This document shows, piece after piece, positions 4,816 to 62,317 of a stretch of 64,000 bases of DNA. The stretch is from Clostridia bacterium. Lineage in GTDB: Bacteria > Bacillota > Clostridia > Christensenellales > Borkfalkiaceae. Positions within the stretch are counted from its first letter, which is position 1; the number at the start of each line of letters is the position of its first letter. The translations under genes were made by a program, and so were the position numbers. The notes beneath the pieces are model-generated. The model was not told the origin of the DNA, searched no databases, and was given only the letters and a program-made list of their open reading frames with translations. The stretch spans positions 8,040 to 72,039 of the forward strand of contig JAFVTA010000061.1 in assembly GCA_017503525.1 (NCBI GenBank). Direction: 5' to 3'.

Positions 4816-5900
4816 TATCCCTTAATCCTCCCGTTTTCAATGCGGATTTTATTACATTCCGCACCGTACAAAACGCGCTCGGCATGGGTGCAGGTAAGCA
4901 CCGTTTGCACGTCCGCGATACATTTGAGCAATTTTTTTCTTCTCGGCAAATCCAGCTCGCTCATGACGTCGTCCAAAACGAGAATAGGGTTCTCCCCCGA
5001 AAGGGTTTTGAAAATTTGCACCTCGGAAAGTTTAAGCGCAAGCGCCGCCGTACGCATTTGACCCTGCGAGGCGTAAGATTTTGCATCCGCGCCCCCGATT
5101 AAAACGTCCAAATCGTCCCTATGCGGCCCGACCGTGGTAAACCCAAGGCGTAAATCCTTTTCGTAGTTATTCTCTAAACGGCGGAGTAAATTTTTGGAAA
5201 TTTCCTCTTCCGTCCCCTCGTATTTTCTTTCGGGTTTAATGACGAGTTCCTCTCCCCCGTCCGTTAAAAAGGCGTGGTATTCCTTGGCGCAGGGGGCAAG
5301 TTTCTCCACAAACTCCGCGCGTTTTTTGACGATAACGGCGGCGTATTTGCAAAGCTGTTCGTCCCATACGGGCAGAGTGTCCAGCACCATGGAAATATCC
5401 CGATTTTTCAATAAGGTATTGCGTTGGTCGAGAATTTTATTATACCGCAAAAGAGCAGTATAATAGGCGGGCGAGGTTTGGGAAATGGAAATATTCATAA
5501 ACCGCCTTCTCTCGTCGGGACCGTCTTGGATAAGACGGAGTTCTCCCGGGGAGAAGAAAACGCTGTTGATATGCCCCATGAGGTCGGCATTTTTGGAAAT
5601 TTTACTCCCGTTCACGCGGATTTCCCGTTTGTTTTCGTAAATATCCGCCTCAATCGTCACGTTGCCGTAGCGGTTTTCCGCTTCGGCGATAATTTTCGCG
5701 GACTCCGCGCCCATGCGAATGAGCTGTTTGTCGTGGCGGATACGGAGCGAAGTACCCGTGTAAAGGTAAAAGACGGCTTCGGCGCAGTTGGTTTTGCCCT
5801 GTCCGTTTTTGCCGAACAGAACGTTAAGCCCCTCCGAAAATTCAAACTTTTCGCTCTCGTAATTTCTGAAATTTTGCAGGAATAATTTTTTTATTTTCAT
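4815..5900 (-). CDS. recF: DNA replication/repair protein RecF
   Basis: 361-aa ORF with Walker A GKNGQGKTN, an SMC-like signature region and C-terminal LVLDDVMSELD. Confidence 0.92.
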   Translation of the reverse strand: MKIKKLFLQNFRNYESEKFEFSEGLNVLFGKNGQGKTNCAEAVFYLYTGTSLRIRHDKQLIRMGAESAKIIAEAENRYGNVTIEADIYENKREIRVNGSKISKNADLMGHINSVFFSPGELRLIQDGPDERRRFMNISISQTSPAYYTALLRYNKILDQRNTLLKNRDISMVLDTLPVWDEQLCKYAAVIVKKRAEFVEKLAPCAKEYHAFLTDGGEELVIKPERKYEGTEEEISKNLLRRLENNYEKDLRLGFTTVGPHRDDLDVLIGGADAKSYASQGQMRTAALALKLSEVQIFKTLSGENPILVLDDVMSELDLPRRKKLLKCIADVQTVLTCTHAERVLYGAECNKIRIENGRIKG

Positions 5901-6029
5901 AATCCTTAAAAAACCCGCCGAAATTGCTTTCTTTTCCTCGAAATTTGTATTATAATTATATCAAATAATTTTCAAAAAAACAAGCTTAACGGATAAGCAA
6001 GCGTAAAATTTTTTACGGGGGATTAAAAA

Positions 6030-7364
6030 ATGGCAGAACATTCTCAACTTCAATTTATTTGGAAGCAGATCAGCGAACGGGTGGAAAACCTCATTTCACC
6101 CATTTCCTATAACACCTATATCAAAACCCTCGAACCCGTGGATATCCTCGGGCGTATTCTCGTGCTCAAAGCGGAAACTCCCCTCGGCGCATCCACCATT
6201 ATGAAAAAGCATGCGGACAAGCTCCGCGATGCCATGGCGAAATGCGACCTCGGCGTAAAAGATTTCCGTTTGGTGGTAGAGGGCAGCGAGGAATTCCCCT
6301 TGGAATACGAAGAGGATGCGTCGGATAACTTCCAAGCCTCCCCTATTAACAAGAGCTTTACCTTCGATTCCTTCGTTGCGGGCGCAAACTCCAAGTTCGT
6401 CTACGCGGCGGCAAAGGCGGTTGCGGAAGCCCCCGGCGAAAGCTTTAACCCCCTGTTTATCTACGGGGAATCGGGGCTGGGCAAAACCCACCTTATGCAC
6501 GCGATTGCCAACCACATTTCTCAAAAATATCCCGAAAAGAAGGTGCTGTATACCACCTGTGAAAATTTCTTGAACGAGTTTATCGATTCGATCTCGCAAA
6601 AGAGCAGCGCAAAGTTCCGTTTCCACTACCGCAACGTGGACGTACTCATGATCGACGACGTGCAGTTCCTCAAAAACAAAACGCAGGTGCAGGAAGAATT
6701 TTTCCATACCTTCAACGAGTTGTCGGCGCAAAACAAGCAAATCGTGCTTTCTTCCGACAGACCCCCGAAGGAAATCGCAACCTTGGAAGAGCGTTTGAGA
6801 ATGCGCTTTGAAGGGGGCATGATTGCGGACATTCAACCGCCCGATCCCGAAACCAAGCTCGCTATTTTAAGAAGAAAGGCGATCGATAGAAAATGCCCTA
6901 TCCCCGACGAGGTGTTGGAGTTCTTGGCAAAGGATTCGGGGCACGACGTACGTACTTTGGAAGGGCGTTTGACGAAGGTGATCTTCGCAAGCAAGCTCCA
7001 CGAAGAACCCATTACCCTCGACCTTGCAAGAAAAGCTTTAAGCGAATCGGTGAACGAAACGGAAGAACAAGAGGACGTGACCCCCGAAAAAATCCTTTCG
7101 GCGGTTTGCGGATACTTTAAGCAAAAGAAGGAAGACTTGCTTGGCAAAAACAAAAAAGCCGACCTCGTCAAAGCGCGCCAAATTTGCGCGTACCTGCTTT
7201 GCGATATGTTAACCCTTCCCCTCGTTGCCGTAGGCAATATACTCGGCGGAAGAGATCATACTACCATTATGTACGCTCGCGACAAAATGGAAAAGCTTGC
7301 GTCCTTGAACGACAAGGTTGCAAAGGAAATCGACGATATTAAAAATATTATCCTCAAAAAATAA
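6030..7364 (+). CDS. dnaA: Chromosomal replication initiator DnaA
   Basis: 444-aa ORF with AAA+ Walker [11 protein letters not shown] and a C-terminal DNA-binding domain ([11 protein letters not shown]). Confidence 0.96.
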
Positions 7365-9282: not shown

Positions 9283-10340
9283 TGAAGAAAATACTTGCTT
9301 TGGCGTGCGCCGCAACGATTGGCGTAACCTCTTTTACAGCTTGCGATTTCAACCTTTTCAAAAAGAACGAAGGGACGGCGAAGAATATTATTTTGCTTAT
9401 CGGCGACGGTATGGGTGAAAACCATATCCAAAACGCCCTTACGTACTTCGAGCTTACCGAACCCCGTTTTATGGCGGACAGGCAGGGCAGTATCGCAACG
9501 AAATCAAAAAATAATGCCGTCACGGACAGCGCGGCGGCTGGTACGGCACTTGCCACAGGGCAAAAGGTGAACAACGGCGAGATTGCGTACCATAACGGTA
9601 AGAACATCCAAACGATTGCCGAACTTGCCAAAAAAGCAGGCAAAAAAGTAGGTATCGTAACAACGGATACCTTGGATGGCGCTACCCCCTCGGCATTCTC
9701 CGCGCACGCGAAAGATAGAGATGATAGCGACGATATCGTTTCTTGTCAATTAGCCACTGGCTTTGATTTATTCATCGGAGAGATGGACGACGGTTTTTAT
9801 AACAATTATGAAGCCGCATTTGAAAGTAAAGGATATTCCTTTGCGTCTTCCCCTGAAGAAATGGTAAGCTATGCAAGCAGTGACAAGCTGATTGCAACCC
9901 TCCCCAACGTGCGTTCTAATTATCGTGAGGATACGAAGTACGATTATCAATTAAAAGATATCGTTGCCTTTGCTACCGAGTTTTTGGATAATGAAAACGG
10001 TTACTTCCTTATGGTAGAAAGTGCGCATATTGATAAGTACAGCCACAACAACGAGATAGTAAACGCCCTTTGCGAAGTGCGTTCCTTCTTCGATACCATG
10101 GATTACTTATACGATACCGTAAGCGAGGATACGGCAATTATTCTCACCGCCGACCACGAAACGGGGCGTTTGAGCCTTGCCAAGTCCAAAGCCGAAGTGG
10201 ACAACTACCTTTACAACTCCTCGGGACATACGGGCGTAGACGTGCCTATCTTTATGAAAAACGTGCCCTACACGCTTACGGGCACGGTGCAAAATACCGA
10301 AGTGTTTGAAATTTGTAAGAAACTGTTTGGATTAACCTGA
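9282..10340 (+). CDS. Alkaline phosphatase family lipoprotein
   Basis: ORF 9255..10340 with start moved to ATG 9282 ([21 protein letters not shown] lipobox). GDGMG and TDSAAAGTALATG alkaline-phosphatase active-site motifs. Confidence 0.85.
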   Translation: MKKILALACAATIGVTSFTACDFNLFKKNEGTAKNIILLIGDGMGENHIQNALTYFELTEPRFMADRQGSIATKSKNNAVTDSAAAGTALATGQKVNNGEIAYHNGKNIQTIAELAKKAGKKVGIVTTDTLDGATPSAFSAHAKDRDDSDDIVSCQLATGFDLFIGEMDDGFYNNYEAAFESKGYSFASSPEEMVSYASSDKLIATLPNVRSNYREDTKYDYQLKDIVAFATEFLDNENGYFLMVESAHIDKYSHNNEIVNALCEVRSFFDTMDYLYDTVSEDTAIILTADHETGRLSLAKSKAEVDNYLYNSSGHTGVDVPIFMKNVPYTLTGTVQNTEVFEICKKLFGLT

Positions 10341-10612
10341 CGAGAGTCGAACTCGAAAGGTTTTGACGGCAAAAAATGGCATAATACTTCGTTGAACTTC
10401 TTGACAAACCGTCAGGGTTTGCCTGCGAAGTCCGCCTTGTCTTCTTCTCATTTTTTGCTCGTAAAAACTGCGCAGCACCTTAAAAGGAATATTTTTCAGC
10501 AGATTTTGGCGAAGGTGGACGCAGTTGTATATAAATACTACAAGAACGCATTTGACGAAATATGCGAAAAATAAACTTTTAAGGCTTACGAGTTCGACTC
10601 TCGTCAGGTTAA
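10332..10612 (+). ncRNA. Candidate structured RNA, clamp element copy A (281 nt)
   Basis: Perfect 24-bp closing stem (10332..10355 with 10589..10612). Interior is homologous to 39223..39444, including a 50-nt block (10521..10570) identical at 44/50 positions by hand count. A plus-strand intrinsic terminator follows. Confidence 0.5.
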
Positions 10613-10632
10613 GATAATCGTAATAAACGCAT

Positions 10633-10671
10633 ACCTGCCCCGTGGGATTTCCCACGGGGCAGGTGTTTTTT
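10633..10671. terminator. Intrinsic terminator between convergent units
   Basis: ACCTGCCCCGTGGG/CCCACGGGGCAGGT hairpin followed by a T-run on the plus strand; lies just past the stop of the minus-strand GT2 gene. Confidence 0.75.
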
Positions 10672-12697: not shown

Positions 12698-12759
12698 AGT
12701 TTCTCCTTATTCGCATACCTGCCCCCTTTGTTTTTACAGAGGGGGCAGGCGAGGTGCTT

Positions 12760-15302: not shown

Positions 15303-15327
15303 ACTATCTCCTATATATGTATAATTT

Positions 15328-15440
15328 CTTAACCTTGGTTAAGTTTTTTATTCAAAGAAAAAGCGGATCTCTATCCGTATTACGAAATTGATTATACCAC
15401 TATTTTATGCCGTTGTCAAGAAAAATGAACCGCGGTTAAG
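15328..15440. promoter_or_regulatory. Two TTAACC-NN-GGTTAA-type palindromes upstream of feoA (candidate metalloregulator operators)
   Basis: CTTAACCttGGTTAAG at 15328..15343 and GAACCgcGGTTAAG at 15427..15440, in the feoA upstream region. Confidence 0.4.
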
Positions 15441-15513
15441 AAATTTTTGGAAAAATTTTTTTTGATATTTTTACGGCGAGGGAGTATCCCCCTCGCCGTT
15501 TCATTATTATATA

Positions 15514-18761: not shown

Positions 18762-18890
18762 CTGGAAGTCCAGAAACTCAGTTTCTGGCGGATTGCAAAG
18801 GCAGAGCCTTGCCGAGGTGTGGAGCAGCGCTCCACAAAAAAGGTACCCCCTAAAAGCAACCGTTAGGTTGCGCACAACGCCGCAGGCGTT
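18762..18890 (-). repeat. Family-2 mosaic multi-hairpin repeat, copy 1 (ruvA-ruvB spacer)
   Basis: Five consecutive hairpins: 18876..18890, 18856..18871, 18819..18835, 18795..18812, 18770..18788. Same architecture as 58728..58846 and 61466..61588. Confidence 0.65.
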
Positions 18891-30415: not shown

Positions 30416-31033
30416 ATGAACGCACTTTTTTCTTTGCTTTTCGCCATTTGTACCCTGCTCCTTTTGTATATCTCCCCCGAAACCTTCCTGCCTGCCCTCT
30501 TGGACGGAGCAAGCAAAGGCGCGGCGGTTTGCGTTTCCCTCGTCGCCACCTATTCCGTGTGGCTGGGGCTTATGCAGGTATGGGAAGACAGCGGCGTGAC
30601 GAGGGCGGTTTCCAAGCTCGTCAAGCCCTTTGCAAAACGGCTGTTCAAAACGGACGACGAAGAGGCGTTAAAAGCCGTTAGCATGAACATGTCCGTCAAC
30701 CTTTTAGGAATTTCGGGCGCGGCAACCCCCTACGGCGTAAAAGCCGCAAACCTCTTGGATAAAACGAAAAACGCCGAGTATTCCTCGGCAATGCTCTTCG
30801 TTTTAAACGCCACTTCCTTGCAGCTTATTCCCACCTCGATTATCGCAGTCCGCGTGGCGTTAAAGAGCGCAAACCCCACCGACATCGTTATCCCCACCAT
30901 TCTTGCCACCCTGCTGTCCACAATTTTAGGAATTATTTTAACCAAACTCTTTATTAAGGACGAAAAAGCAAGGGACACGGGTCGGGTTTGTATGCCGAAA
31001 AGGTTGCAAACAAAGGGGGCAGGTACGAGATGA
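30416..31033 (+). CDS. spmA: Nucleoside-recognition (Gate) domain membrane protein, SpmA-like
   Basis: 205-aa polytopic ORF, paired with an overlapping SpmB-like ORF. Confidence 0.8.
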   Translation: MNALFSLLFAICTLLLLYISPETFLPALLDGASKGAAVCVSLVATYSVWLGLMQVWEDSGVTRAVSKLVKPFAKRLFKTDDEEALKAVSMNMSVNLLGISGAATPYGVKAANLLDKTKNAEYSSAMLFVLNATSLQLIPTSIIAVRVALKSANPTDIVIPTILATLLSTILGIILTKLFIKDEKARDTGRVCMPKRLQTKGAGTR

Positions 31034-31545
31034 ATTATCTTTTGGGTCTAATCGTACCTATCATTTTTCTCGCCTCGTTTCTCTTTGCAATCTTTCGCAA
31101 GGTCAAAATTTACGACAGCTTCACGCAAGGGGTAAAGGGCGCAATCCCCCTCATTTTATCCATTTTTCCCTATATCGCCGCTGTCACCATGCTTTGTAAA
31201 CTGCTTGAGGTAAGCGGACTGGAAAAGGCGCTTACCAGCTGGGTTGCGCCCCTTTTTTCCTTTACGGGTATCCCCGAAGAAATCGCTCCCCTCGTGATTA
31301 TGAAGCCTCTTTCGGGGAGCGGCTCTATCGCCGTGTTAACGCAAATTTTAGAACGCTACGGCGTAGACAGCTACGCCGCGCGCTGCGCCTGCGTTGCCTA
31401 TGGCACTTCGGATACCGCCTTTTATATCGGCGCGGTGTACTTCGCAGGTTTGGAACGAAAAAAAATGACAACCGCGCTTGTCATTTCCCTGTTTTCCTTT
31501 CTTATTTCTGTGATTTTTAGCTGTTTCCTTTGCCGAATTATGTGA
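31030..31545 (+). CDS. spmB: Spore maturation protein B-like membrane protein
   Basis: ORF 30988..31545 with start moved to ATG 31030 (ATGA overlap with the spmA stop): MNYLLGLIVPIIFL... Confidence 0.8.
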   Translation: MNYLLGLIVPIIFLASFLFAIFRKVKIYDSFTQGVKGAIPLILSIFPYIAAVTMLCKLLEVSGLEKALTSWVAPLFSFTGIPEEIAPLVIMKPLSGSGSIAVLTQILERYGVDSYAARCACVAYGTSDTAFYIGAVYFAGLERKKMTTALVISLFSFLISVIFSCFLCRIM

Positions 31546-36738: not shown

Positions 36739-37977
36739 ATGGCTACAACGCAGGAAATTTTACAGCGGGCGAAAAAGGCGGCAAGTCAGCTTGCCTGCCT
36801 TACCCCCGAACTTAAAAACGAGGCGCTTTTGAAAATGGCGGACGAGTTAGAGCGCAGAAAAGAAGAAATTTTATCCGCCAACGCCGTGGATGTCGAAACG
36901 GCAAAATCCGTCCTCGGCGCGGTAATGATCGACCGACTTGCCTTAAACGAAAAGCGTATTTCCGCTATGGCGCAGGGCATACGCGAAGTGGCGGCTTTGC
37001 CCGATCCTATCGGCAAAGTTCTGGAGGAAAACACCCTACCCAACGGACTGTTCGTGCAAAAAAAGCGCGTACCCTTGGGGGTGGTCGGGATTATTTACGA
37101 AAGCCGTCCCAACGTCACTTCGGATGCAGGCGCATTGTGCTTTAAAAGCGGCAACGTTTGCGTTTTGCGCGGGGGCAGGGATGCGTTCAACTCCTCTTTC
37201 GCCCTTGTGACGATACTGCGCGATACCCTCTCCTCTATGGGGTTAAACCCTGACTTTATCAACGTGTTAGAGGATACTTCCAGGGCAAGCGCCGCCGAAC
37301 TTATGACGGCGGTCGGCTTGGTGGATGCGCTCATTCCAAGAGGGGGTGCAGGGCTAATCCGCGCTTGCGTGGAGAACGCCAAAGTCCCCTGCATTCAAAC
37401 GGGTACAGGCATTTGCCATATCTACGTAGACAAGCACGCAAACGTGGAAAAGGCGCTGAATATTTTAGACAACGCCAAAACTTCCCGACCTTCCGTTTGC
37501 AACGCCGCAGAGGTCTGCCTCGTGCATAAAGAGATTGCGGAAACCTTCCTGCCCCTTATGCAGGAACGCTTGCAAGGCAGGGTAGAACTCCGTTTGGACG
37601 AGAAAGCAGGTCAAATTATCCAAGGTAAAAAGGCAACCGCGCAGGATTTCGACACCGAATTTTTGGATTATATCCTTGCCGTCAAAGTGGTGGATAGCGA
37701 AGAAGAGGCGATTGCGCATATCGCCCAACATTCCACGGGTCACAGCGATTGTATCGTAAGCGAAAACGAACAGGCGCAGGATATATTCACCCTTTGCGTA
37801 GACAGCGCGGCGGTGTACGTCAACGCCTCCACCCGTTTCACGGACGGCGGAGAGTTTGGGAAGGGCTGTGAAATCGGCATTTCCACGCAAAAACTGCACG
37901 CGCGCGGTCCCATGGGTTTAGAAGAGCTTTGTTCTTATAAATATATCGTAAAAGGAACGGGGCAGGTACGAGGTTAA
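36739..37977 (+). CDS. proA: Gamma-glutamyl phosphate reductase
   Basis: ORF 36622..37977 with start moved to ATG 36739 ([14 protein letters not shown]). Aldehyde dehydrogenase fold with catalytic Cys in SRPSVCNA. Confidence 0.93.
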
Positions 37978-37980
37978 GGT

Positions 37981-38781
37981 ATGATTATGGAATACGAATT
38001 TGGTTTTATCGGTTGCGGAAATATGGGCGGAGCGCTGGCTAGCGCTTGCTTAAAGTCCGTCAAACCCAAAAAAATCGCCGTATGCGATTACGACGAACAA
38101 AAGGTAAACAATTTCAAAGCGCTTGGCGCAAAAGGCGCTACTGCGCAGGAAATCGCGGCAAACGCAAGATTTATCGTGCTTGGGGTAAAACCCCAAGTCA
38201 TGGAAAGCGCCCTCTCCCCCATCGCGCAAGCGTTGCAACAACGCACGGACGCGGTGATTATCACCATGGGCGCAGGCGTATCCATTTCCGCTATCCGTTC
38301 CTTTATCGGTGCGGATTTGCCCGTGATCCGCATTATGCCCAACACCCCTGCCCTCGTTGGCGAGGCTATGATCCTCTATTCGGTTGAGGGTGTGGACGAA
38401 CGGGAAGAAAAGGCATTCTTAAAGGGCTTTGCTATGGCAGGCAAGTTTGACAAAATCCCCGAAAGCGAAATCGATGCGGCAAGCGCGCTGTCGGGCTGCG
38501 GTCCTGCGTTCGTGTACGCGTTCGCGCGCGGACTGGTCAAGGGCGCTTGCAAAAGCGGAGTCCCCGAAGACAAGGCGTTTGCCTACACGGCGCAAACCCT
38601 CATAGGGGCGGCAAAAATGCTGTCCGCCTACGGCGACCCCGATACCTTGATTAAAAACGTATGCTCCCCAGGGGGAACGACGATTGAAGGGATTAAGGCG
38701 CTGGAAAAAGCGGACTTTGACAATATTACCGCCTCGGCTGTCACCGCCGCTTATAAACGAACATTAGAACTTAAAAAATAA
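37981..38781 (+). CDS. proC: Pyrroline-5-carboxylate reductase
   Basis: 266-aa ORF with GFIGCGNMG Rossmann motif and C-terminal SPGGTT. Confidence 0.93.
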   Translation: MIMEYEFGFIGCGNMGGALASACLKSVKPKKIAVCDYDEQKVNNFKALGAKGATAQEIAANARFIVLGVKPQVMESALSPIAQALQQRTDAVIITMGAGVSISAIRSFIGADLPVIRIMPNTPALVGEAMILYSVEGVDEREEKAFLKGFAMAGKFDKIPESEIDAASALSGCGPAFVYAFARGLVKGACKSGVPEDKAFAYTAQTLIGAAKMLSAYGDPDTLIKNVCSPGGTTIEGIKALEKADFDNITASAVTAAYKRTLELKK

Positions 38782-38784
38782 AAT

Positions 38785-38812
38785 AAAGCCTCGCTATTGC
38801 GAGGCTTTTATT
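38785..38812. terminator. Intrinsic terminator between convergent genes
   Basis: AAAGCCTCGC/GCGAGGCTTT hairpin. Confidence 0.7.
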
Positions 38813-39182
38813 ATAACGGTATTCCAAAGAAATTATCCTTGCCCGAATTTAATTCCAACAAAAGGATAGAGGCGATAAACGCTCGGCGTTCGTCGATACT
38901 CGCTCTCTTAAATAAGTGCTTGCGTTTAAAAGCGCGGTATTGCTTGGGATATAACGCCTTAACGGACGGAAACCCGTACACGCCGTCTACGCAAGTGACA
39001 AGATTGATTTCTTCACCGCCCGACACCTCGCGCCAGTCGAAAAAGTTTTTGTCCTTTTTATAACGGCAGATATACACGCAGCTGCTATCTCCGCCCTTTT
39101 GATAGGAATACTCAAAGACAAAGCCCTTTTCCATCAAAGGCAGGGTTAATAATTTAATTTTTTCTGCGGATTGTACTTCCAT
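38811..39182 (-). CDS. Hypothetical protein (123 aa)
   Basis: ORF 38811..39206. I prefer ATG 39182 (MEVQSAEKIKLL...) with AAGGA upstream, because earlier codons would lie inside the clamp-element stem. No recognisable domain. Confidence 0.5.
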   Translation of the reverse strand: MEVQSAEKIKLLTLPLMEKGFVFEYSYQKGGDSSCVYICRYKKDKNFFDWREVSGGEEINLVTCVDGVYGFPSVKALYPKQYRAFKRKHLFKRASIDERRAFIASILLLELNSGKDNFFGIPL

Positions 39183-39195
39183 AGTTATCCTTTTA

Positions 39196-39471
39196 TAGCC
39201 AATCAAGACCGAATTGAATCAGGTTTTTGATGGCAGATTTTCTCTAATACTGCGTTAAAATCCTCGGTAAACCGTTTGGTTGCCCTGCGGTTTTGCCTTG
39301 TCTTATCCAAAATCTGCTCGGCAAAACCTGCAAGGCATCTCAAAGCAAGGATTTTTCGATAGATTTTGACAAAGGCGGTTGCAGTTGTATCGACATACTA
39401 CAAGAACGCATTTGGCGAAATATACGGAAAAGACTGCTTTGAGACTGGTTCAATTCGGTCTTGATTGGCTA
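39196..39471 (+). ncRNA. Candidate structured RNA, clamp element copy B (276 nt)
   Basis: 27-bp closing stem (39196..39222 with 39445..39471) with one pair, T39219-G39448, that is U-G only on the plus strand. Interior homologous to copy A. Plus-strand terminator immediately 3'. Confidence 0.5.
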
Positions 39472-39500
39472 AAGGGGCGTTTTTACGCCCCTTTTGTTGT
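39471..39500 (+). terminator. Intrinsic terminator after clamp element B
   Basis: AAAGGGGCG/CGCCCCTTT hairpin followed by TTTTGTTGTT. Confidence 0.7.
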
Positions 39501-39524: not shown

Positions 39525-41345
39525 TTATTCCAAAATAGCCTTGATACGGCGGATACCCGAACCGCTGCTTTGTTCTTTTTGGATTTTAAAATGGCCAAGC
39601 TTACCCGTCGATTCTACGTGAGGACCGCCGCAAATTTCTTTAGAGAAATCGCCGATGGTGTAAGTCTTAACCACTTCGCCGTACTTGCTTTCAAACAAGC
39701 CCGTGAACCCTTCCGCTTTCGCCTCTTCCAAAGAAATTTCCTTCATGACCACGGGAATATCCGCTTTGATTACCTCGTTTACAAGGTCCTCTACCGCTTT
39801 GATTTGTTCGGGGGTCATGGGTTGGGGAAGATTGAAGTCGAAACGCAATCTTTCCTCGGTAATGTTGGAACCCTTTTGATTTACGTCGGGAGAACATACC
39901 TTTTTAAGCGCCGCGTGGAGCAAGTGGGTTGCCGTATGGAGCGCCGTCGTAGCCTCTTTATGGTCGGCAAGACCGCAAGCGAATTTACCTTCGCTCCCTG
40001 CCTTACTCTTGCTTTGGTGTTCTTCAAACGCCGCTTTGTAGCCGTCCAAATCTACCGTGAACCCACGCTCTTTTGCCATTTCGTCCGTGATTTCCACGGG
40101 GAAACCGTAGGTATCGTACAAACGGAAAGCTTGCTTGCCGTTAATCACCTTTTCGGGAACGTAGCTAGGATCGTTTTGCGCCATAAACATGTTCTTGCGC
40201 TCGATACCGCTAATGCACTTTTCAAATTCCTTTAAGCCCTGCTGTAAGGTCTTGTTGAACTTCGCCTCTTCTTTGTTGAGCTCTTCGGCAATCTTGTCCG
40301 CGTTGATTTTTAATTCGGGATATACATCTTGGTACTCCTCGATAAACGCCTTAGAAATGGTTGCAAGACTGCCTTCAGGCAGGTCGATTTTTCTTCCGTA
40401 GCGCACCGCGCGTCTAATAATTCTGCGCAAAATATACCCTTGGTCGGTGTTGGAAGGCACGATACCCTTTTCGTCGCCGAGCATAAAGGTCGCCGTACGC
40501 GTGTGGTCCAACAGCACGCGGAAGGATTTGGTCGTTTCCTCGTTATCGTCATAGTTCTTGCCCGTAAGCGAGGAGATTACTTTAATCGCATTTTCAAACA
40601 AGTCCGTTTCGTATACGCTGGACTTCCCGTTCAATACGCAAAGCGCGCGCTCTAAACCCATACCCGTGTCCACGTTCTTTTGCGAAAGTTCGGTGTACGA
40701 ACCGTCCGCTTGCTTGTTAAAGCGCATGAATACGTCGTTCCAAATTTCAAGGAATGCGCCGCAGTTGCAATCGGGATTACAGGTAGGCGAGCACTTGGGC
40801 TTACGGATAACGAACATTTCGGTGTCCGTACCGCAAGGGCCGGTCAAGCCGGCAGGCCCCCACCAGTTGTTTTCACGGGGCATGAAATAGATATTTTCTT
40901 TCTTGATGCCCGCCTTTTCCCAAAGCTCCGCCGCCTCGTTGTCGCAGGGCAGGGTTTCGTCCCCGCCGAATACGGTTACGGCAATTTTATCGGCGGGAAT
41001 GTTCAAATACTTCTCGCCCGTCAAAAATTCATAACTCCAAGGGATCATTTCTTCCTTGAAATAATCGCCCAGCGACCAGTTGCCGAGCATTTCAAAGAAG
41101 GTGCAGTGTCTTTCGTCGCCAACATCGTCGATATCCCCCGTACGCACGCACTTTTGCACGTCGGTAAGACGGTTGCCCGCAGGGTGCTTTTCACCAAGCA
41201 AATAAGGCACGAGGGGGTGCATACCCGCCGTCGTAAACAGTACGGTAGGATCGTTTTCGGGGATCAAGGATGCGGAAGGGATTACTTTATGCCCGCGGTC
41301 TTTGAAAAAGCCCAAATATAATTCTCTTAAATCTTTTGCTTTCAT
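39525..41345 (-). CDS. alaS: Alanine--tRNA ligase, short form ending after the editing domain
   Basis: ORF 39525..41408 with start moved to ATG 41345 (MKAKDLRELYLGFF). Class II core FTTAGMHP, editing-site HTATHLLH and CGGPHV. 606 aa. Confidence 0.9.
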   Translation of the reverse strand: MKAKDLRELYLGFFKDRGHKVIPSASLIPENDPTVLFTTAGMHPLVPYLLGEKHPAGNRLTDVQKCVRTGDIDDVGDERHCTFFEMLGNWSLGDYFKEEMIPWSYEFLTGEKYLNIPADKIAVTVFGGDETLPCDNEAAELWEKAGIKKENIYFMPRENNWWGPAGLTGPCGTDTEMFVIRKPKCSPTCNPDCNCGAFLEIWNDVFMRFNKQADGSYTELSQKNVDTGMGLERALCVLNGKSSVYETDLFENAIKVISSLTGKNYDDNEETTKSFRVLLDHTRTATFMLGDEKGIVPSNTDQGYILRRIIRRAVRYGRKIDLPEGSLATISKAFIEEYQDVYPELKINADKIAEELNKEEAKFNKTLQQGLKEFEKCISGIERKNMFMAQNDPSYVPEKVINGKQAFRLYDTYGFPVEITDEMAKERGFTVDLDGYKAAFEEHQSKSKAGSEGKFACGLADHKEATTALHTATHLLHAALKKVCSPDVNQKGSNITEERLRFDFNLPQPMTPEQIKAVEDLVNEVIKADIPVVMKEISLEEAKAEGFTGLFESKYGEVVKTYTIGDFSKEICGGPHVESTGKLGHFKIQKEQSSGSGIRRIKAILE

Positions 41346-41427
41346 AAGGTTTGTCCTTCTTTTTGATTTTCGCTTTTCATTATATATGCCTGCCCCCCAG
41401 TTTGTCAAGCAAACGCAAGGGGTACGC

Positions 41428-51507: not shown

Positions 51508-52422
51508 ATGAAAATTTATTTTTTATCCGCAATCCCCTGCGCCCTTACCCTAAACGGCGTTTATTTCGGGCTTACCGACCGCTTTGAACGGTTTGCCGAA
51601 ATCCATTTAGCCGATAAAATTTTCGCTGAATTTATCCCCGAAAACGCACAGCCTATCCGTTTCTTTATCACCGAACGCTTACCTAGCGTGCCGCCGCAAG
51701 GCTGCGAAGTATACCTGCTCCCCGACGGGCTCGCGGTATTCGCGCGCGATTTCCCGCCCTTGCCAGCCCCTCTAACCGTGATTGCGCAGGCTCGTTTTCC
51801 TCAAGGGCTCGTCACCGTTTTTTCGCAAGGCGGGGTACAGGTATCGATTGAAAATAGCTTTGGACTTTTCACCTCGTACCTGCCCCCTTCCTTTTCCGTT
51901 TGCGAACTCACCTATCATGAAGGGCTGTTCTTCCTAAAAGGGCAAAACTGCCTTGCCGTTTACACGCAAAAAGGCAGGCAGGTGTTGCTGGAAGAGGTGC
52001 TTTCCTTTGAAATAGAGAACGGCGAACTAAAAGCCGTGCTCCCCCTTTCCGACTGTTTAGGAAGAAACGCAAATTGTGTTTGGGCGATTGACGAGGAAGG
52101 CTGCATACAAAAATCCTGCACGCTTACGCAAGCGCGGACGCACGGCGGCGACGGGAACGAGGCGGACATTCTTAAAGAGCTGTTGCCCTATGCTTTTTTT
52201 GAAAGCGTGCTCATCGGCGCGGACTTTACGCCCTTTTTATCAAACGAATTGCAAACCAAGGCAGGCGCGCTTACCGCGTTTTTGGGGGAGTTCAAGGCGG
52301 TCGTTCCCACAGACGATCCATTTGTATGTAGGCTAATCTATCAAAAGCAAGAACGCTTATTCGAGGCGCGAGATTTCAAGGTTTGCGTCGAAAAGGATAA
52401 AATTACCGACGTCACGGGCTAA
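51508..52422 (+). CDS. Hypothetical protein (304 aa)
   Basis: Long ORF with native-like composition and no recognisable domain. Confidence 0.6.
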   Translation: MKIYFLSAIPCALTLNGVYFGLTDRFERFAEIHLADKIFAEFIPENAQPIRFFITERLPSVPPQGCEVYLLPDGLAVFARDFPPLPAPLTVIAQARFPQGLVTVFSQGGVQVSIENSFGLFTSYLPPSFSVCELTYHEGLFFLKGQNCLAVYTQKGRQVLLEEVLSFEIENGELKAVLPLSDCLGRNANCVWAIDEEGCIQKSCTLTQARTHGGDGNEADILKELLPYAFFESVLIGADFTPFLSNELQTKAGALTAFLGEFKAVVPTDDPFVCRLIYQKQERLFEARDFKVCVEKDKITDVTG

Positions 52423-61465: not shown

Positions 61466-61588
61466 CGCGCTATGCGCGTCAAACGTCTGCGGCGTTAAAA
61501 GCGCAAAACTGCGTTTTGCTTATAGGGGGGCCGTTTTCGTGGAGCGCTGCTCCACACCTCGCCAGAAACTGAGTTTCTGGACTTCCAG
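61466..61588 (+). repeat. Family-2 mosaic multi-hairpin repeat, copy 2
   Basis: Hairpins at 61466..61478, 61482..61496, 61503..61519, 61539..61555 and 61562..61580. Lacks the fourth hairpin of copies 1 and 3. Confidence 0.65.
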
Positions 61589-61591
61589 AAG

Positions 61592-62317
61592 TTATTCTTC
61601 GTATAACCGAATCAGCTCGCCTAAATTATCGAACTTGCTTTCGGTTTTTTCGGAAAGGTAGGCTTTGACAAGGCGCAGAGCGCGTTTGTTGCCCCCTGCA
61701 AGCGCATCTTCCCGATAGGTCAAGCCCGCGCATTTGCGCAAGGCGTAATAGGTGGACAGGCTGGCCCTCTCGCCTGCCGTTGCGCGGTCGAACGAGGTGA
61801 ACCGTCCGTCCGCAAAATCAAAATACAATTTCTCGCCGATATCCCCTTCGCATTCCTCCAAGAAGGATAAATCCAGGGGGTATCCGCTTTCTCTAAGCGC
61901 CGTCAATACGAAAGTGAGCACCCCTTCCGCAGGGTCGTCTTGGGAGAGTGCAAGGGATTTCAAACCCTCCGCAAGCCCTACGAATAAGCCTTCGTATTTT
62001 TCATTTTCGTATAAAATCGCAAGGCAGATTTCCGCCATGGCGCACGCCGCGTAAAAACGGACTACGTCGTAGCGCAGGGCAAAAAAGCTTTCGTGCAGGT
62101 ACGCGTTCGTCATCGTGTACCTGCCCCCTTTTTCCGCGAGAATATACTCGCAAAAGCAAAAGGGCTGGGCGGCAAACGCCAGCTTGGCTTTGGGCTTTTT
62201 CACCCCCCTTGCCCCTACCGTGATTTTGCCTAAAGACGGGGAAAACAAGGTAAGCAGTTTATCGTTGTCTTTGTAGTCGATAGACTGTAATACGATTGCC
62301 TCCGTCTTAATTTCCAT
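61592..62317 (-). CDS. recO: DNA repair protein RecO
   Basis: ORF 61592..62323 starts at a GTG; I prefer ATG 62317 (MEIKTEAIVLQSIDYKDNDKLLTLFS). Confidence 0.9.
   Translation of the reverse strand: MEIKTEAIVLQSIDYKDNDKLLTLFSPSLGKITVGARGVKKPKAKLAFAAQPFCFCEYILAEKGGRYTMTNAYLHESFFALRYDVVRFYAACAMAEICLAILYENEKYEGLFVGLAEGLKSLALSQDDPAEGVLTFVLTALRESGYPLDLSFLEECEGDIGEKLYFDFADGRFTSFDRATAGERASLSTYYALRKCAGLTYREDALAGGNKRALRLVKAYLSEKTESKFDNLGELIRLYEE

Follow-up and report, generated by a model that had tools for sequence, protein, structure and literature searches.

A mobile DNA element without a transposase gene, and with a conserved interior fold, beside the alaS terminator of a Clostridia bacterium

The window analysed here, a stretch of 64,000 nucleotides from an uncultured gut Clostridia bacterium, is chromosomal and carries housekeeping genes, among them dnaA, recF, mnmG, aminoacyl-tRNA synthetase genes, ruvABC and proBAC. 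The recF (minus strand) and dnaA (plus strand) genes diverge at 4818-7361, and the window therefore probably spans the chromosomal replication origin; GC skew is negative across the whole window despite this probable origin. A Pfam search of 40 ORFs in the window uncovered no transposase, reverse transcriptase or recombinase. Between alaS and a gene for a conserved hypothetical protein of 123 aa lies a mobile DNA element of about 276 bp, termed copy B, which has no transposase gene of its own and sits beside the alaS terminator. Another copy of the same element, copy A, is located elsewhere in the window. The relevant features are as follows.

38811..39182, minus strand: gene for the 123-aa conserved hypothetical protein (333 homologues; synteny)
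39196..39471, plus strand: copy B, mobile element (inverted repeat; nhmmer family profile, E=5e-94; missing at the orthologous site in L007 and L008)
39196..39222, plus strand: left arm of copy B, the 5' strand of closing stem P1, B-type, TA-GCCAATCAAGACCGAATTGAATCAG
39223..39328, plus strand: 5' domain of copy B (12-copy consensus fold mapped to the window)
39223-39242 / 39307-39328, plus strand: long-range helix P2, enclosing P3 and P4 (consensus fold)
39254-39263 / 39289-39297, plus strand: helix P3 (consensus fold)
39266-39273 / 39278-39285, plus strand: hairpin P4 (consensus fold)
39329..39337, plus strand: small hairpin P5, UGC-NNN-GCA, invariant among the copies and hence uninformative
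39338..39444, plus strand: 3' long hairpin domain (P6-P8), with conserved U·G and G·U pairs (inverted repeat, consensus fold)
39338-39347 / 39435-39444, plus strand: helix P6 (consensus fold)
39352-39380 / 39404-39431, plus strand: helix P7 (consensus fold)
39384-39390 / 39395-39401, plus strand: apical helix P8 (consensus fold)
39395..39414, plus strand: the block with the highest conservation, ATACTACAAGAACGCATTTG (copies A and B agree at 29 of 30 positions, flanks counted)
39445..39471, plus strand: right arm of copy B, the 3' strand of P1 (inverted-repeat match)
39471..39494, no strand assigned: alaS intrinsic-terminator hairpin, outside the element (terminator scan; present in element-free L007 and L008)
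39525..41408, minus strand: alaS, a short alanyl-tRNA synthetase gene whose terminator flanks copy B (Pfam tRNA-synt_2c and tRNA_SAD; 606 aa in L004)
10333..10611, plus strand: copy A, with A-type arms TA-ACCTGACGAGAGTCGAACTCGAAAG (inverted repeat; profile search; empty site in L033)

The alaS product is short (606-627 aa) and of the same length across the lineage; Pfam identifies its catalytic domain and the second additional domain (tRNA_SAD), and no other. The 123-aa protein has no match in Pfam or in the PDB. An earlier note on this DNA had called its gene an orphan, a description that does not hold considering its 333 homologues in metagenome-assembled genomes (MAGs) of uncultured Clostridia. 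Three other assemblies contain the exact protein, again with copy B adjoining its gene. Copy B is antisense to this gene, 13 nt upstream of its ATG, and is inserted directly beside the alaS terminator stem.

The core of copy B (39198-39469) is bordered by two TA dinucleotides, at 39196-39197 and 39470-39471. The two arms, 27 nt each and 96% complementary, enclose 222 nt, and no match of this kind occurred in 100 shuffles. The 27-bp closing stem described in the earlier note (39196..39222 with 39445..39471) is thereby confirmed, as is its sole non-Watson-Crick pair, T39219·G39448 (...GAATCAG versus ...GAACCAG). Copy A has a closely similar layout, with arms of 28 nt each (10332-10359 and 10585-10612) enclosing 225 nt. 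It lies within the final codons of an alkaline phosphatase gene, with a strong terminator downstream; the phosphatase ORF extends 9 nt into the element, which supplies the stop codon TGA (10338-10340), such that the protein ends ..GLT. The neighbours of the two copies are alaS, the 123-aa gene, the phosphatase gene and a GT2 glycosyltransferase gene. Their interiors are 74-79% identical, and the block GCAGTTGTAT-N4-ATACTACAAGAACGCATTTGRCGAAATAT is nearly invariant. Their arms differ at about 14 of 27 positions, and yet each arm pair remains almost perfectly complementary.

How did copy B come to occupy this site? The order cysS-alaS-123aa-proC is kept in GCA_045605705 and GCA_045611525, in which the 123-aa proteins are 85% and 80% identical, respectively, and the alaS-123aa spacer is only about 165 nt. 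Alignment shows no copy B in this spacer in either genome. In these relatives, the terminator hairpin is followed directly by ...TTTTATACAAGGAATACGGT-ATG, while the window reads ...CCCCTTT-A/GCCAATC...GATTGGC/TA-TAAAAGGATAACT-ATG, with the element between the slashes. Copy A is likewise missing in GCA_045605705 (L033), where a 50-nt spacer holds the same terminator. When copy A and one TA are excised in silico, the phosphatase ends ..GLR-TAA, and five homologues end ..L(K/R) at their stop codon. At both sites, removing the element plus one TA restores the contiguous arrangement seen in the relatives. Copy B is a recent insertion, from a family of elements of Ca. Scatosoma and related uncultured gut and rumen Clostridia. 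The two empty sites are independent, and both insertions fit a TA target duplication of the kind made by IS630/Tc1-mariner elements. Since TA is palindromic and lengthens the stem, such a duplication looks the same as an insertion into T^A that duplicates nothing.

The terminators downstream of both copies belong to the host sites, since they are present in relatives that lack the element. This result bears directly on the proposal, made in the earlier note, that copy B is a free-standing small-RNA gene on the plus strand with its own promoter, TTGTAC-N17-TATAGC, and with the downstream hairpin as its terminator. The strong plus-strand fold, the better folding of the interior on that strand and the plus-strand terminator-like hairpin after both copies are all consistent with such a gene. 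Indeed, the hairpin AAAGGGGCG..CGCCCCTTT and its T-run at 39471-39494 score as a plus-strand terminator; the hairpin is, however, the alaS terminator of the host and not a part of the element, and both terminators already exist in relatives whose loci are missing the element. The promoter matches 7/12 of the consensus, was not called above chance by the scan, and straddles the insertion junction, with its -10 box spanning flank and element. Other copies have no conserved upstream sequence. Clean empty sites in relatives together with fitting target duplications, which the earlier note had listed among the outcomes that would refute its reading, were found for both copies, and a small-RNA gene with its own signals now appears very improbable. 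Disruption of the T-tract of the alaS terminator by the insertion was considered and set aside, since a simple scan fails to call this hairpin in the relative as well.

The least probable of the alternatives is that copy B is a cis-regulatory leader or an invertible switch for the 123-aa gene. The short distance to the ATG would suit a leader, and long inverted repeats are also found in invertible segments. However, the orthologous leaders lack the element, even in relatives whose 123-aa protein is 80-85% identical. Moreover, four independent assemblies (the window, L004, L005 and L006) all show one and the same orientation, and no invertase or recombinase gene lies nearby. The same element also occurs in unrelated contexts, and the weak minus-strand TTTACC-N16-TATTAG that had been put forward as a promoter is not conserved among the copies.

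The family extends beyond the window. Three metagenome contigs were recovered with a 20-mer taken from the conserved block, and 23 loci with an 18-mer in a scan of 185,579 species genomes. A profile search (nhmmer) retained 14 of these 23, the other nine being chance matches in unrelated taxa, and all 14 are in Ca. Scatosoma MAGs or in goat-caecum "Clostridia bacterium". The family comprises at least 12 full-length copies along with truncated forms, in four MAG species and one metagenome, and includes elements of a third arm type, C, whose core has diverged further. The genomes with an empty alaS site carry copies elsewhere, at eight loci in GCA_045605705 and two in GCA_045611525. Dispersed copies at non-orthologous sites are thus seen in the eight loci of GCA_045605705, in three further MAG species and in the metagenome. 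BLASTN against plasmid and phage collections gave no match to the element, and scans of viral contigs gave none to the core 20-mer or the B-type arm.

The full-length copies have several properties expected of a MITE. They measure 272-279 bp, contain no transposase ORF, and end in inverted repeats of 27-28 nt whose arms are 95% paired (12 copies). Their only ORFs, of 46-49 aa, are not conserved, and substitutions track pairing rather than codons. TA...TA flanks are present in 11 of the 12, and beyond the TA there is no consensus except a tendency to T-TA-A. The element is therefore mobile, present in multiple copies, inserted at TA and devoid of any protein gene. The view in the earlier note that it is an autonomous, transposable kind of element and not a feature of one locus is supported by copies A and B and by the family as a whole.

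Several derivative arrangements were encountered. Internally deleted forms occur in L013, L016 and L020, and contigs end inside the element in L005, L006, L010 and L026; the family breaks metagenome assemblies of this lineage. Solo-arm hairpins (TAACCTGACGAG...CTCGTTAGGTTA) without an interior are found at 6824-6851 of L010 and 4061-4088 of L014, and may be footprints left by excision or A-type elements reduced to a minimum. A-type and C-type elements abut in L021 (3835-4377) and L015 (3299-3795), one pair in tandem and the other head-to-head. This arrangement suggests that one element inserted into, or beside, the other, and it offers a route to mosaic copies.

The RNA fold has a z value of about -11 to -12.5 relative to shuffles, on either strand. 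For the analysis of pairing, the 12 copies were re-aligned with the arms ungapped, and arms and interior were analysed separately (nhmmer, MAFFT/RNAalifold and pair counts). The 12-copy consensus contains 104 pairs, made up of P1 and seven interior helices. In the closing stem (27 pairs counted), 95.1% of cells are paired, versus 21-41% when the 3' partner is slid by 1-3 columns, and 17 of the 27 pairs have changes on both sides. In the interior (78 pairs counted), 94.1% of cells are paired, versus 41-48% after the same slide, and 27 of 78 pairs have double changes, versus 5-9 when slid; within the 5' domain, helices 1, 3 and 4 contribute 7, 5 and 5 double-change pairs. On four of five measures, the observed value was reached by 0-1 of 500 shuffles for the closing stem and by 0 of 500 for the interior. 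The fifth measure, the number of further standard pair types, is not above shuffles, 398 of 500 reaching it for the closing stem and 246 of 500 for the interior. These counts refer to 12 copies representing about 6-7 independent lineages, all ascertained through a conserved 18-mer or 20-mer, and to a consensus structure that came from the very sequences used for counting.

Compensatory substitutions preserve the multi-helix fold of the interior. Copies A and B match no Rfam 15 family at the gathering score, and E<=10 gives only chance-level matches. This structurally constrained, MITE-like family is new.

On which strand does the constraint act? In the interior helices, read on the plus strand, G·U cells outnumber A·C cells by 75 to 15 and include conserved G·U pairs. 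Of the 12 copies, 11 have an interior that is more stable as the plus strand; the consensus fold of the reverse complement has fewer pairs. The suggestion that the plus strand is the better-folding strand of the interior is thus borne out, both by the excess of G·U over A·C and by the sense orientation of most copies. The closing stem behaves differently, with 4 G·U versus 7 A·C across the family, a symmetric count. The pair T39219·G39448, which the earlier note had singled out as U-G on the plus strand and A-C on the minus strand, cannot serve as a strand indicator: it arose by a C-to-T change private to copy B, the other B-type copies having C.

The orientation of the copies points in the same direction. 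Ten of 11 informative copies are sense to the neighbouring genes, typically in the short gap that follows a stop codon and precedes the next ribosome-binding site, with copy B as the antisense exception. Replication-strand bias as the cause of this orientation is unsupported by local GC skew. Neither a palindromic TA target nor a pair of identical ends could determine orientation, and the bias therefore argues for selection acting through the transcript. This RNA-level argument does not extend to copy B itself, since copy B is antisense to its neighbours.

These observations also allow a purely selfish DNA MITE to be weighed. On this account, the fold is a by-product of palindromic ancestry or of hairpin-mediated correction in a single-stranded DNA intermediate, the RNA has no role, and the sense bias reflects only the avoidance of polar effects. 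The strand-symmetric mismatches of the closing stem would be expected in that case, as would the decay of T-loop-like and stem positions after insertion and the absence of both promoter and terminator inside the element. It is difficult to see, however, how palindromic ancestry would give an interior that is a multi-branch fold rather than a simple palindrome, with its 27 double-change pairs. Correction of hairpin mismatches would remove the G·U pairs, and yet these exceed A·C pairs by 5:1 and some are conserved; and the 10:1 orientation bias needs an effect at the level of the transcript. We regard a purely selfish element as unlikely, though it has to be taken seriously.

The arms present a different problem. 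The tips, TA-RCC, are the only sequence common to arm types A, B and C. The arms covary freely among the three types, and double compensation is also found within a subtype, as in the B-type copy L027b (AAGA/TCTT) and in L021 (A/T). In addition, L027b is a mosaic with B arms and an A-like 5' domain, so that arms and core behave as exchangeable modules. All of this would fit a mobile element recognised by its structure, in which an enzyme reads a folded single strand of DNA or RNA, as with IS200/IS605 ends or integron attC sites, and requires only hairpin ends and TA-RCC, with arms that need merely pair. However, neither an HUH enzyme nor any other candidate was seen, and there is no replication-strand bias. 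IS200/IS605 elements make no target duplication and have asymmetric ends, and a TA target with symmetric inverted repeats is characteristic of classic DDE cut-and-paste transposition; recognition by structure is therefore improbable. A retron msr/msd was also considered and rejected, as there is no reverse transcriptase among the neighbours or in the window.

The A-type arm has a further peculiarity. The right arm of copy A (10585-10611), ACGAG-TTCGACT-CTCGT-CAGGTTA, pairs with the 5' TAACCTG and has the form of a canonical T-arm plus acceptor strand, a perfect mimic of the 3' half of a tRNA. Its segment ACGAG-TTCGACT-CTCGT-CAGGT is identical at 22 of 22 positions to phage tmRNA 3' ends, and a 21-mer, CGAGTTCGACTCTCGTCAGGT, is shared with a phage tRNA-Leu gene; in viral contigs this 21-mer occurs only at the 3' ends of tmRNA genes and of the tRNA-Leu gene (L035 3636-3656, L037 6391-6411, L038 1549-1569). 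The likeness to tRNA and tmRNA 3' halves is limited to this arm type. The geometry is loose in the B-type arm, including that of copy B, and absent in the C-type arm; T-loop positions mutate freely in individual copies, and the remainder of the element has no tmRNA similarity. Identity as a tRNA or tmRNA gene was rejected, with ARAGORN calling no gene at the element in the window or the family loci. The tRNA-like arm might be a relic of the origin of the element or a processing signal in master copies.

The reading that we favour, with a probability of roughly two in three (0.68), is that copy B is a non-autonomous, MITE-like insertion of about 272 bp plus a duplicated TA, whose core is constrained as RNA and which was moved in trans. 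How would such an element move? Presumably a DDE transposase of the IS630/Tc1-mariner type, which duplicates TA, would be provided in trans and would recognise the ends; the class is assigned only from the TA duplication and the inverted repeats. Searches of the window (Pfam, 40 ORFs), of related loci totalling about 250 kb and of collections of plasmids and phages gave no autonomous partner with matching ends, and a parent transposase was not revealed by fuzzy arm searches, by terminal 14-mers or by long-range inverted repeats in 12 loci. In addition, the A, B and C arms differ at about half of their positions, which is awkward for a single sequence-specific transposase.

The non-autonomous, RNA-constrained element would presumably owe its interior to selection at the RNA level. 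Promoter scans of the copies found sites at or below the shuffle level, and there is no terminator inside the element; without signals of its own, the element would be transcribed within host operon transcripts. Orientation-dependent selection would then retain the sense copies. The near-perfect 27-bp stem could form a double-stranded RNA substrate, as Correia elements do for RNase III. Such a substrate might shield the host mRNA from the inserted sequence, or it might set the folded core free.

Perhaps the element goes further and is itself a promoter-less mobile RNA gene, its ends serving both as transposon termini and as an RNA processing stalk of about 27 bp that frees a folded RNA of about 220 nt from whichever host operon transcript contains it. 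The stalk would then be a substrate for RNase III or, in A-type copies, a tRNA-like minihelix for RNase P/Z. An internal-loop motif that hardly varies, ACUACAAGAACGCAUUUG, might be the binding site of a protein or have a function in trans, perhaps in mobilising the element itself. Such a gene would explain why the arms change freely but continue to pair, as well as the excess of sense copies and the near-invariant core motif. We consider this extension tentative and, on balance, doubtful.

Copy B itself would seem to affect its locus from the other strand. The distance from the terminator to the 123-aa ATG is only about 25 nt in the relatives, and the 123-aa gene is therefore probably reached by read-through; in the window, such a transcript crosses the reverse complement of the element. 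The minus-strand transcript that reads through from alaS into the 123-aa gene thus likely gains a 276-nt hairpin, and production of a plus-strand RNA from copy B is unlikely.

Three known systems invite comparison. RUP of pneumococcus is a 107-bp repeat whose inverted repeats match those of IS630-Spn1, and IS630/Tc1-mariner-style transposition has been proposed for it (PMC2229807). The family described here resembles RUP and other IS630-derived MITEs in being non-coding, with terminal inverted repeats, TA insertion and TA flanks, and in having many dispersed intergenic copies in a Firmicute that are presumed to be mobilised in trans (PMC2229807). It differs in its size (about 276 bp), in having an interior fold better conserved than its arms, and in that a parent IS is known for RUP and none for this family. 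In the Correia (NEMIS) repeats of Neisseria, the RNA hairpin formed by the repeat is a substrate of RNase III, and the repeats are co-transcribed with neighbouring genes (PMC2229807). These elements share inverted repeats of about 26 bp and a TA target with the present family (PMC2229807), in which RNase III processing is predicted by analogy only. However, Correia elements are near-palindromes of 104-157 bp without a separate structured core, and have no sequence similarity to the element. Finally, bcr1 of the Bacillus cereus group is a transcribed mobile repeat in which RNA structure is kept by compensatory changes (PMC3184786). Like the present element, it is a mobile repeat of a Firmicute with a compensated fold (PMC3184786), but its sequence is unrelated, it is about 155 bp long, and it has a 5-bp direct-repeat target, in contrast to the TA target and interchangeable arm subtypes of the present family.

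Small bacterial jumping elements are usually taken for remnants of insertion sequences, with nothing of importance but their ends. Here the reverse is true: an interior of about 220 nt is conserved and constrained on one strand, while the ends diverge in coordination and swap between subtypes. If the RNA fold is functional, a non-coding RNA could spread through genomes by making use of host transcription. For annotation, copy B is an insertion polymorphism, and should be recorded as a repeat and not as a regulatory RNA of the 123-aa gene.

Other repeats were noticed in the window and related loci. A second small repeat family, CTGGAAGTCCAGAAACTCAGTTTCTGGCG..., is found at 18762-18849 (plus strand) and 61525-61588 (minus strand) of the window, at about 683-790 of L007 and at about 9842-9945 of L008. 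In the two relatives, a copy roughly 100 nt long occupies the stretch from the alaS stop codon to its terminator; the window has none there, and the repeat therefore constitutes another insertion polymorphism at the alaS locus. A recurrent motif, GGGGCAGGTACGAG, occurs at 31008-31034, 37951-37977, 12711-12733, 51868-51898 and 62110-62131 (the last three as the reverse complement) and also in the stem of the 10631-10666 terminator. The copy at 37951-37977, the only one compared with a start codon, ends just before the ATG at 37981, and the motif may be an unusual shared translation-initiation or processing signal. Lastly, a palindromic repeat, AAAACTTAACCATGGTTAAGTTTT, is present in several copies at 1679-2771 of L026, and a related imperfect pair occupies 15323-15445 of the window.
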